From positions 16,719-80,718 of the IMG/VR virus record IMGVR_UViG_2905373006_000003: a stretch of 64,000 nt of DNA, one strand, 5' to 3'. This DNA is from a virus. Lineage: Duplodnaviria; Caudoviricetes. Positions within the stretch are counted from its first letter, which is position 1; each line of letters opens with the position of its first letter. Position numbers and translations under genes: made by a program. The notes under the pieces are model-generated. The model saw only the letters and a list, made by a program, of their open reading frames with translations. It searched no databases and was not told the origin of the DNA. This document shows positions 53,655-54,125 of this stretch, piece by piece.

Positions 53655-53770
53655 AAAAAAACCCACCGAAGTGGGTTCCTTTACCCCGAATTGCCGACCA
53701 AAGCTATCGGGAGTTCTACTAGCGCGACCAAACGCTAGAAGAGGCAAGACCAATGATAAATCACTGATCG
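53655..53770 (-). ncRNA. Predicted multi-target antisense sRNA
   Basis: Promoter TTGTGC(53804-53799)-17-TAAAAT(53781-53776); CAUUGGUCUUGCCUCU, two UUUGGUCG-loop hairpins, cUUCGg terminator + U tract. Confidence 0.7.
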
Positions 53771-53792
53771 CAGTTATTTTAAAGGAGTTGCT

Positions 53793-54125
53793 ATGAAAGC
53801 ACAACCTGAAAGCCTAACAGTCACACTCTATCTTCATGCTAAAAAACAGTTCGATGGCTCTTACCAATATAACGCCTACGCATTTAAAGCCGATCCCAAT
53901 GCTGGACTAGGTTTTGTTATTGCTGAACACACTGTTGATGTTCCTTTTAAAGAGCCTACTCAAACTGATCTCATTCACGCTGAAATTGATTTTCTACGTA
54001 ATGAACAAGAAAAAATCCTAGCTGATGCCCAAGTAAAAACAAGTTTGTTAGAAGATCAAATCCAAATGCTTCTCTGCTTGGAAGGCAAACCAATAGCTAA
54101 AGAAGATGAAGAAATTCCTTACTGA
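53793..54125 (+). CDS. Hypothetical phage protein
   Basis: AAGGAG RBS; C-terminal coiled coil. Confidence 0.75.
   Translation: MKAQPESLTVTLYLHAKKQFDGSYQYNAYAFKADPNAGLGFVIAEHTVDVPFKEPTQTDLIHAEIDFLRNEQEKILADAQVKTSLLEDQIQMLLCLEGKPIAKEDEEIPY

Follow-up and report, generated by a model that had tools for sequence, protein, structure and literature searches.

A predicted IsrB-type small RNA in a lambda-like prophage of a Proteus-type bacterium and the shared translation-start tag that it may recognise

The small-RNA unit and the tagged starts of the window

The 64,000-nucleotide (nt) stretch of DNA analysed here (the window; positions 16,719 to 80,718 of the IMG/VR virus record IMGVR_UViG_2905373006_000003) is part of an 80.7-kb provirus record, and its right part holds the early region of a lambda-like prophage whose host is a Proteus-type bacterium. 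In the pL arm of this region a predicted small RNA (sRNA) lies on the minus strand, antisense to the pL transcript, and carries the exact complement, termed the anti-tag seed, of a 16-mer, AGAGGCAAGACCAATG, which recurs as a tag at the translation starts of early genes in both arms (Table 1). The unit had been proposed, in what we call the sequence-only reading, as a master sRNA that blocks the ribosome-binding sites of many lytic genes; its promoter letters, seed, two UUGGUC hairpins and terminator coordinates were all confirmed when the minus strand was read.

The 16-mer is exact at five sites, that is, at the four tags so marked in Table 1 and at 53740-53755(+) within the sRNA unit, and near-exact at 48475-48490(-) and 57690-57705(+). 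With up to three mismatches allowed, eight matches were obtained where 0.45 are expected, a number reached in none of 100 shuffles; the eighth, at 41285-41300 with three mismatches, looks like a chance match. The 12-mer core GAGGCAAGACCA has seven exact copies in the whole 80.7-kb record, its reversed control none. Every copy of the tag consists of a Shine-Dalgarno (SD) sequence, a spacer and ATG and stands on the coding strand, which is the minus strand for the pR arm and the plus strand for the pL arm; identity among the copies is confined to 12-16 nt, with differing sequence on either side, and the start of the tag coincides with or adjoins the stop codon of the preceding gene. Six copies open reading frames of 56-655 amino acids (aa), namely those of the HNH/Ref-like nuclease, the RecE-like exonuclease, the gene at the xis position and three small open reading frames (ORFs), and the copy within the sRNA unit opens merely a 4-codon ORF. 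Both the 16-mer and the 12-mer scan bore out the exact and near-exact sites that the sequence-only reading had placed on the coding strand of both arms, and they agreed with its remark that no tag precedes cI or int.

The 4-codon ORF (53753-53767, +) reads M-I-N-H-stop in this prophage; in the L139 and L214 lineages the ATG at the sRNA locus shares the frame of the next gene and lengthens it by 13-16 codons, and in others this ATG is absent. Small hairpins with a CGACCA loop are present on the mRNA strand at 48506-48519(-) and 51021-51037(-), 15-25 nt upstream of two tags; being complementary to the UUGGUC loops of the sRNA, they could serve as kissing sites.

Table 1. Coordinates of the sRNA unit, the tags and the early region in the window
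Feature	Position	Strand	Basis or remark
Predicted sRNA, about 115 nt, enlarged IsrB-family member	53655-53769	-	Rfam isrB 36.8 bits; own model R1 135 bits; fold; covariation
Putative promoter TTGTGC (53804-53799), 17-nt spacer, TAAAAT (53781-53776)	53776-53804	-	Predicted start near 53769
5' hairpin pairing the 5' end with the AUCAUUGGUC half of the seed	53748-53769	-	Minimum free energy (MFE) fold
Anti-tag seed CAUUGGUCUUGCCUCU (anti-AUG, anti-spacer, anti-SD)	53740-53755	-	Exact complement of the tag
Hairpin 1, UUGGUC hexaloop closed by U.G	53719-53738, loop 53731-53726	-	Within the 42-nt insert relative to Gifsy IsrB
Hairpin 2, GCUUUGGUCGG loop, also in Salmonella IsrB	53685-53711, UUGGUC 53701-53696	-	Rfam alignments
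Rho-independent terminator: AACCCAC (53677-53671), loop UUCG, GUGGGUU, seven U	53655-53677	-	Aligns with the IsrB terminator
Tag of the HNH/Ref-like nuclease gene	46085-46100	-	Exact 16-mer
Tag GAGGCAAGACC-ATG of the 58-aa ORF 48302-48478	48476-48490	-	Near-exact; orthologue in relatives has an identical tag
Tag of the 74-aa gene 50773-50997	50995-51010	-	Exact; present in 54/54 related loci reaching that gene
Tag of the RecE-like exonuclease gene	54385-54400	+	Exact
Tag of the 56-aa gene	57107-57122	+	Exact
Tag GAGGCAAGACCAAA-ATG of the 70-aa gene at the xis position	57690-57707	+	Near-exact
pL-leader site CGACCAAAGC-TACA-AGGCAGACC	52885-52913	+	Tag copy lacking ATG, preceded by the complement of the hairpin-2 loop
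Q-like gene	45193-45741	-	
HNH/Ref-like nuclease gene	45776-46087	-	phrog_1588 and Ref-like match; Pfam RecA_dep_nuc
NinB gene	46099-46692	-	
481-aa ORF at the helicase position	48533-49978	-	DnaB by synteny with ZF40 gp15; ORF itself not scanned
O-like initiator gene	49941-50771	-	
74-aa gene (phrog_2465)	50773-50997	-	Abuts the O-like initiator gene
CII-like gene	51015-51470	-	
Cro-like gene	51511-51768	-	
CI-like gene	51873-52631	+	
cI terminator	52652-52680		
Probable pL: TTGACA, 16/17 nt, TAATAT, operator-like repeats	52703-52731	+	Downstream of the cI terminator
110-aa gene	53793	+	
86-aa gene	54125	+	
RecE-like exonuclease gene	54398-56365	+	phrog_2489, E 1e-219
Gam-like gene and small ORFs	between the RecE-like gene and the integrase gene	+	
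56-aa gene (phrog_2482)	57120-57290	+	
70-aa gene directly before the integrase gene	57705-57917	+	Excisionase by position only
Integrase gene	57919-59094	+	

Fold, strand and IsrB kinship

Homologues of the unit were collected through the neighbouring protein (45 IMG/VR and 9 genome loci), and more of them through DNA patterns and our own covariance model, R1; L250 (G128) fell below the 1e-6 limit and stands outside alignment A3. Fitted to R1, a procedure that favours pairing, the 19 diverse homologues of the covariation alignment had 97.7% of 640 cells paired, with 41-61% in slid controls, and 15 pairs (94 cells) were changed on both sides, which was equalled by 0/500 shuffles. Hairpin 1 shows compensatory changes in all nine of its pairs and keeps its UUGGUC loop in 17/19 homologues, and in hairpin 2 CCCGA/UCGGG is replaced by CUCGG/CCGAG among close relatives. 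For the 5' hairpin, 90.6% of 171 cells are paired in the 19 homologues, as against 19-54% in slid controls, with three pairs changing on both sides. The UUGCCUCUUC part of the seed, which is its anti-SD portion, is predicted to be single-stranded in the MFE fold, and UUGGUCUU(G/U)CCU of the seed is invariant across the 19 aligned homologues.

The same alignment bears on the strand. In the four non-terminator helices (helices 1-4) G.U pairs outnumber A.C by 72 to 2, an excess indicating that the folded RNA is the minus strand, and the paired share in these helices is 96.9% for a minus-strand RNA and 79.1% for a plus-strand RNA. The MFE is -46.9 kcal/mol (z -5.3) for the minus strand and -30.2 kcal/mol (z -3.5) for the plus strand. 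As the plus strand, too, folds better than its shuffles, and as it offers a boxB-like hairpin and extra tag-like copies, the functional molecule might be the pL leader itself, whose GACCAA hairpin loops, tag and 4-codon ORF would make up an attenuator, an antitermination site or a decoy for a reader of GACCA. We consider this improbable: beside the strand bias of the helices, both the strong terminator and the -10-like hexamers are oriented for minus-strand transcription, conservation of the 4-codon ORF is lacking (there is no ATG in ZF40, the L198 group and L174), and Salmonella IsrB, to which we come below, is a minus-sense transcript (PMC2330248).

Conservation is concentrated on the unit. 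Between the window and Providencia loci the sRNA body is identical at 108-109 of 116 positions (93-94%) and the adjacent gene at 235-247 of 333 (71-74%), and the commonest variant of the body (L012 type, 50 loci) was found in both Proteus and Providencia loci. A -10-like hexamer (TAAAAT, TATAAT, TATACT or TATATT) stands 6-9 nt upstream of the conserved body in all lineages inspected; similarity among relatives sets in just past it, at the predicted start, and is lost after the U tract of the terminator, with variation concentrated between the hexamer and the body. A 1-nt indel in hairpin 2 (115 versus 116 nt) separates close relatives, and more distant ones have many indels, with pairing kept. 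Because of these indels we reject a protein-coding reading, either of the minus-strand ORF 53547-53804 (85 aa, TTG start) or of a small plus-strand ORF. Such ORFs do appear in a mechanical listing, but the minus-strand ORF reads through the terminator and no conserved reading frame was seen across the homologues, and the chance that the region codes for protein is negligible.

An all-family Rfam search of 53300-54000 returned isrB (RF01386) at 53656-53780(-) with 36.8 bits (cut-off 35, E 2e-5), in an alignment that spans the full model (positions 1-87) and in which a 42-nt insertion holds the anti-tag seed and the first UUGGUC hairpin. Sub-threshold Rfam matches on the unit (rsmX, 21.8 bits where 56 are required; snoRNAs) were put down to chance. 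Homology to IsrB is supported by the common hairpin loop GCUUUGGUCGG, followed in both by the CUUCGG-loop terminator, and by the antisense position upstream of recE. Gifsy-2 IsrB, which scores 99.3 bits, is antisense between recE (STM1009, exoVIII) and STM1010; like it and IsrB-2 of Gifsy-1, the window RNA is prophage-borne and antisense in a pL operon just upstream of recE/sbcA, the RecE-like gene lying about 630 nt downstream of the sRNA on the opposite strand, a synteny that matches Gifsy-2 and Table 1 of PMC2330248. It differs in size, at a predicted 115 nt rather than 88/94 nt, and in the 42-nt insert, which brings in the anti-tag seed and a second UUGGUC hairpin. Gifsy-2 IsrB lacks the seed, the 19 early starts of Gifsy-2 have no long tag in common, and the complementarity of IsrB to any of them is at most 8 nt. 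The RNA from 53655-53769(-) is best filed as a member or a derivative of IsrB, with a membership that is borderline by score.

IsrB-1 and IsrB-2 were seen as 88/94-nt RNAs by Northern blot and primer extension, are induced by starvation and overlap their neighbouring genes (PMC2330248). Enrichment of IsrB by co-immunoprecipitation with Hfq in Salmonella was only 2.0 in the data of PMC2515195 that concern it, and Salmonella IsrB is associated with ProQ (PMC5391140). We found no target or function of IsrB in the literature searched, which included passages of PMC2330248 and of a 2025 review of phage sRNAs; the latter name IsrK and c4, and IsrB was not seen in them (PMC12197685). Of 151 sampled genomes of the family, four have the full seed-bearing type of sRNA; short IsrB-like RNAs, with hairpin 2 and the terminator and no anti-tag seed, were observed at 11 places in eight of the 151 (L226-L233, L241, L243, L244), and 11 of the 26 places from this family-wide search were judged terminator-only look-alikes.

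Taken together, the isrB match, synteny, covariation, strand-specific G.U pairs and conservation indicate that the minus-strand unit is very probably a genuine small-RNA gene. Rfam and covariation searches had been proposed as checks by the sequence-only reading; covariation came out strong, and Rfam gave the marginal match to a named family.

Tags, seeds and leader in related prophages

A protein search with the 110-aa protein encoded next to the sRNA gave homologues named from Providencia, Morganella and Proteus, and the genome loci with this protein are from Proteus faecis, P. vulgaris, P. columbae and five Providencia records. Each of 54 related loci has 5-8 tagged starts on the coding strand, and among the genes tagged are orthologues of the six window genes and a 112-aa cassette. 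In five whole host genomes all 34 exact 12-mers (34/34) lie in a prophage early region beside the sRNA, with 0-1 matches per genome for the reversed control, and 4/5 further tag-bearing records contain the sRNA, the exception being a 52%-complete fragment. The Pectobacterium phage ZF40, whose neighbour protein is only 39% identical, has the sRNA with a perfect TATAAT and the seed UAUUGGUCUUGCCUU, together with six tagged genes. When 105 unique tag contexts from 79 loci were compared with the RNA of their own locus, 71 were perfect over 11 nt, 23 differed by wobble only and 11 had a true mismatch; L025, whose locus begins past the sRNA, was left out of this tag census.

Seed and tag also change together. 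In G032 the seed is UUGGUCUUUCCUC; three genes and the leader carry GAGGAAAGACC tags, and the standard tag is absent. A scan for this class gave 85 stretches, of which 84 loci with 33 unique sRNAs were analysed: they hold 260 matching tags before ORFs of at least 40 aa, in both arms and mostly with 12-16 nt in common with the sRNA locus, and none of the 58 loci checked for standard 12-mers has one. In G128, the one lineage with ..CAUGCC.. in its seed, the seed ..GGUCAUGCC.. is accompanied by GAGGCATGACC and GAGGTATGACC tags. There are thus three seed/tag classes, GCAAG, GAAAG and GCAUG. Two further scans for seed variants (B and C, with 2 and 33 stretches) were set aside as unrelated, most of the 18 parsed matches being one short unit repeated in large metagenomic virus records.

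The plus-strand copy at the sRNA locus has no ATG in ZF40, L075, L164, L208, the L198 group, L174 and G032, and these ATG-less copies retain GGCAAGACCAA (GGAAAGACCAA in G032). Where CAU is changed to CGU or UAU at the sRNA locus, pairing with AUG is kept through G.U.

The tag might instead be a linker from or for cassette recombination with no regulatory reader, its resemblance to the seed being incidental. Gene content between the tags does vary in relatives, with 112-aa and 58-aa cassettes coming and going, and, as noted above, the start of the tag falls on or beside the stop codon of the gene before it. Yet the tag is identical in phages of Proteus, Providencia and Pectobacterium whose neighbouring proteins are only 39-73% identical, every copy stands on the coding strand with an ATG at SD distance, and the tag switches class together with the sRNA, which leaves this reading very unlikely.

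The pL leader carries a further copy of the tag, without ATG, behind the complement of the hairpin-2 loop. The window copy is one A short of that in relatives, which read AAGGCAAGACC, and in G032 the leader copy follows the seed class. Within the leader stretch (52885-52933, +) a boxB-like hairpin, GCTCGGAAAGACGGGC, comes after the tag copy; in the GAAAG class the corresponding hairpin is GCCGGGAAAGACCGGC, which contains the tag core of that class. Two genes occupy an insertion (52946-53640) between the leader and the sRNA terminator: one of 130 aa (+) and, convergent with it, one of 66 aa (53335-53535, -) that has a TGTGTATAAT promoter-like site of its own; most relatives lack the insertion, the leader being joined straight to the sRNA terminator. 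The strong promoter-like site at 52703-52731 is the probable pL, and related palindromic operator-like repeats of the CAATAGCATTGCTATTG type are found both in the divergent cro/cI region (51822-51840) and over this site (52690-52730). The 70-aa gene at the xis position has no PHROG or Pfam match and no similarity to the ZF40 excisionase.

Database searches with the DNA yielded little: megablast against phages and a search of complete E. coli genomes gave no match, and distant blastn gave a partial ZF40 match only. A literature search with the letters of the tag retrieved human GPX4 primers only, none of which has the 15-mer, and searches on Proteus sRNA returned nothing relevant; the ZF40 genome paper, at the passages reached by term search, has no mention of such a repeat or RNA. 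As far as these searches reach, a private tag on many genes with a co-switching seed is not in print. To that extent the suggestion that the regulon is undescribed holds; the RNA itself belongs to or derives from a known family.

A candidate trans-acting repressor and its rivals

The comparisons above lend good support to the existence of the sRNA gene, to its strand and fold, and to its link with the tag. On balance we favour the view that the RNA is a trans-acting antisense repressor of about six early genes, which would also face the pL transcript in cis; its transcription in the host, its pairing in vivo, repression as the direction of the effect and the timing are what we infer from sequence. 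In the lysogen, where pL is off, the convergent sRNA promoter would be free and the RNA would accumulate, like IsrB in Salmonella lysogens. Pairing would start from the exposed anti-SD bases, at tags on early mRNA that is leaky or incoming, and the duplex would extend over the AUG and block binding of the 30S subunit, and translation of the tagged genes would decrease. Two tagged genes adjoin untagged ones, the 74-aa gene next to O and the gene at the xis position next to int, so coupling could extend the effect, and the O-like initiator and int would drop too. On induction, transcription from pL would collide with the sRNA promoter, and the pL transcript, with its perfect 115-nt complement and the leader copy at 52885-52913, could titrate the sRNA and thereby release the tagged genes.

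A number of observations weigh against this view or limit it, or bear on the IsrB membership on which it draws. Four of the 24 RNA runs listed were checked and speak neither for nor against expression, two raw-read runs having no reads of the stretch and two contig runs having one contig each (17.7 and 5.7 kb), without strand, ends or level. The sequence-only reading had the unit bracketed by a promoter and a terminator; the letters of both are present, but a consensus scan listed neither. The putative promoter is weak, its -35 matching 3/6 positions, and across 51400-54400 the scan gave 10 promoter-like sites, no more than the 11.1 expected by chance; for the terminator, we take the cause to be a stem extension that enters the U tract. 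The 5' half of the seed is predicted to lie inside a hairpin. Pairing energies discriminate only weakly between tagged and other starts: three tags are clearly outside the background of 67 ORF starts, and the tags of the xis-position gene and of the 58-aa ORF are in its tail. The isrB score of the window is marginal, a whole-window Rfam run at gathering scores returned no match at all, the sRNAs of five related genomes score 29.8-33 bits and so stay under the cut-off of 35, and ZF40 has no Rfam match at E 0.01.

The choice of genes also limits what the RNA could control. In the window and in the whole record, the tag is absent before cI, cro, cII, O, the helicase-position ORF (DnaB), NinB, Q, gam and int. 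With cI, cro, cII, O, the helicase-position ORF, Q and int untagged and the tagged genes being accessory early functions, to call the sRNA a master regulator was an overstatement, and the proposed silencing of replication and late-control genes goes too far, since O and Q would be reachable only by coupling or polarity.

The co-variation of seed and tag calls for particular care. The sRNA locus is itself a plus-strand tag copy, and the minus-strand RNA carries the complement of the tag because it overlaps this copy (53740-53755), so that co-variation alone cannot separate RNA-RNA pairing from another reader of the motif; moreover, only two independent seed switches were found. Wobble-type tag variants are in excess, 23 versus 5 non-pairing transitions with the ZF40-type position 1 left out, an excess that is confounded by SD constraint and shared ancestry and is only suggestive.

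These points bear on a second reading, in which the sRNA is real and acts only in cis, antisense to the pL leader and the first gene, by transcriptional interference or RNase III cleavage. The tag would then be read by a phage RNA-binding protein or by the ribosome, or would be an efficient start that spread, and the overlap alone would account for the complementarity in trans. Consistent with this, the plus-strand tag copy overlapped by the sRNA opens in some lineages an in-frame extension of the first pL gene (123-127 aa), and co-variation is equally expected if every plus-strand copy must match one reader. Gifsy IsrB, the sole member with experimental data, has no tags in trans and, in the passages of PMC2330248 on it, is described only as overlapping its neighbours. 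Set against this, the tag core is kept at the sRNA-locus copy even where no ATG or ORF follows it, no candidate for a protein reader emerged, the conserved neighbours having no Pfam family, and copies of 12-16 nt that are spread over about 12 kb need, in order to change in concert, a partner that matches them, as the RNA does by construction. We rate action in cis alone as rather unlikely and retain repression in trans as the favoured reading.

Phages offer several precedents for parts of such a system. The c4 RNA of P1/P7 is the closest analogue for the seed classes, being an antisense immunity RNA that acts in trans at complementary sites around the ribosome-binding site and comes in specificity classes. 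It has few sites, all in the ant/icd operon, and is processed from the transcript of that operon, whereas the window RNA is predicted to be separately promoted and faces 6-8 dispersed starts in both arms; no C4-family match was returned by the all-family Rfam searches of the window at gathering scores and of 53300-54000 at E values up to 10. P4 CI RNA, lambda OOP and P22 sar/sas, short RNAs antisense in cis or near-cis, likewise pair with mRNAs of the phage and in this way decide between lysis and lysogeny or bring about exclusion. The targets of each number one or two and are set by overlap or local repeats, and we know of none that uses a tag repeated on many unrelated genes. T4 RegA resembles the proposed RNA as one factor that acts on many early starts: it represses translation of many early genes through their initiation regions, but is a protein with a loose consensus, in contrast to a candidate RNA with exact complementarity over 12-16 nt. 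In the passages of PMC12197685 on phage antisense RNAs, P22 sas is counted among them and the heteroimmunity of P1/P7 is ascribed to small sequence differences between the c4 RNA and its targets.

A tentative extension of the favoured reading is one that we hold to be possible and on the doubtful side. Seed and tag might form an RNA immunity barcode, by which the resident sRNA would shut the tagged early genes of an incoming or co-resident phage of the same class, whatever its CI type. GCAAG, GAAAG and GCAUG would then be specificities akin to heteroimmunity and born of escape, and the pL transcript with its leader copy would be a sponge that flips the switch on induction.

The tag asks for an explanation in any case: if only the action in cis were real, a tag common to so many starts would still need one. 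One RNA that faces identical starts on 6-8 unrelated genes in both early operons is unlike the known phage antisense RNAs with their 1-2 targets, and joint switching of seed and tag between prophage lineages is not described for these either. The natural seed classes amount to ready-made compensatory mutants. IsrB has been named since 2008 with no target found, and its enlarged form brings an explicit and testable target set. If the barcode reading is true, the orphan IsrB family would gain a function, and well over 100 prophages in several genera would have a multi-gene, phage-private translational regulon. If repression in trans is true, temperate phages of Proteus, Providencia, Pectobacterium and other hosts would have a post-transcriptional layer on excision and recombination, and this layer may mediate cross-immunity between phages.

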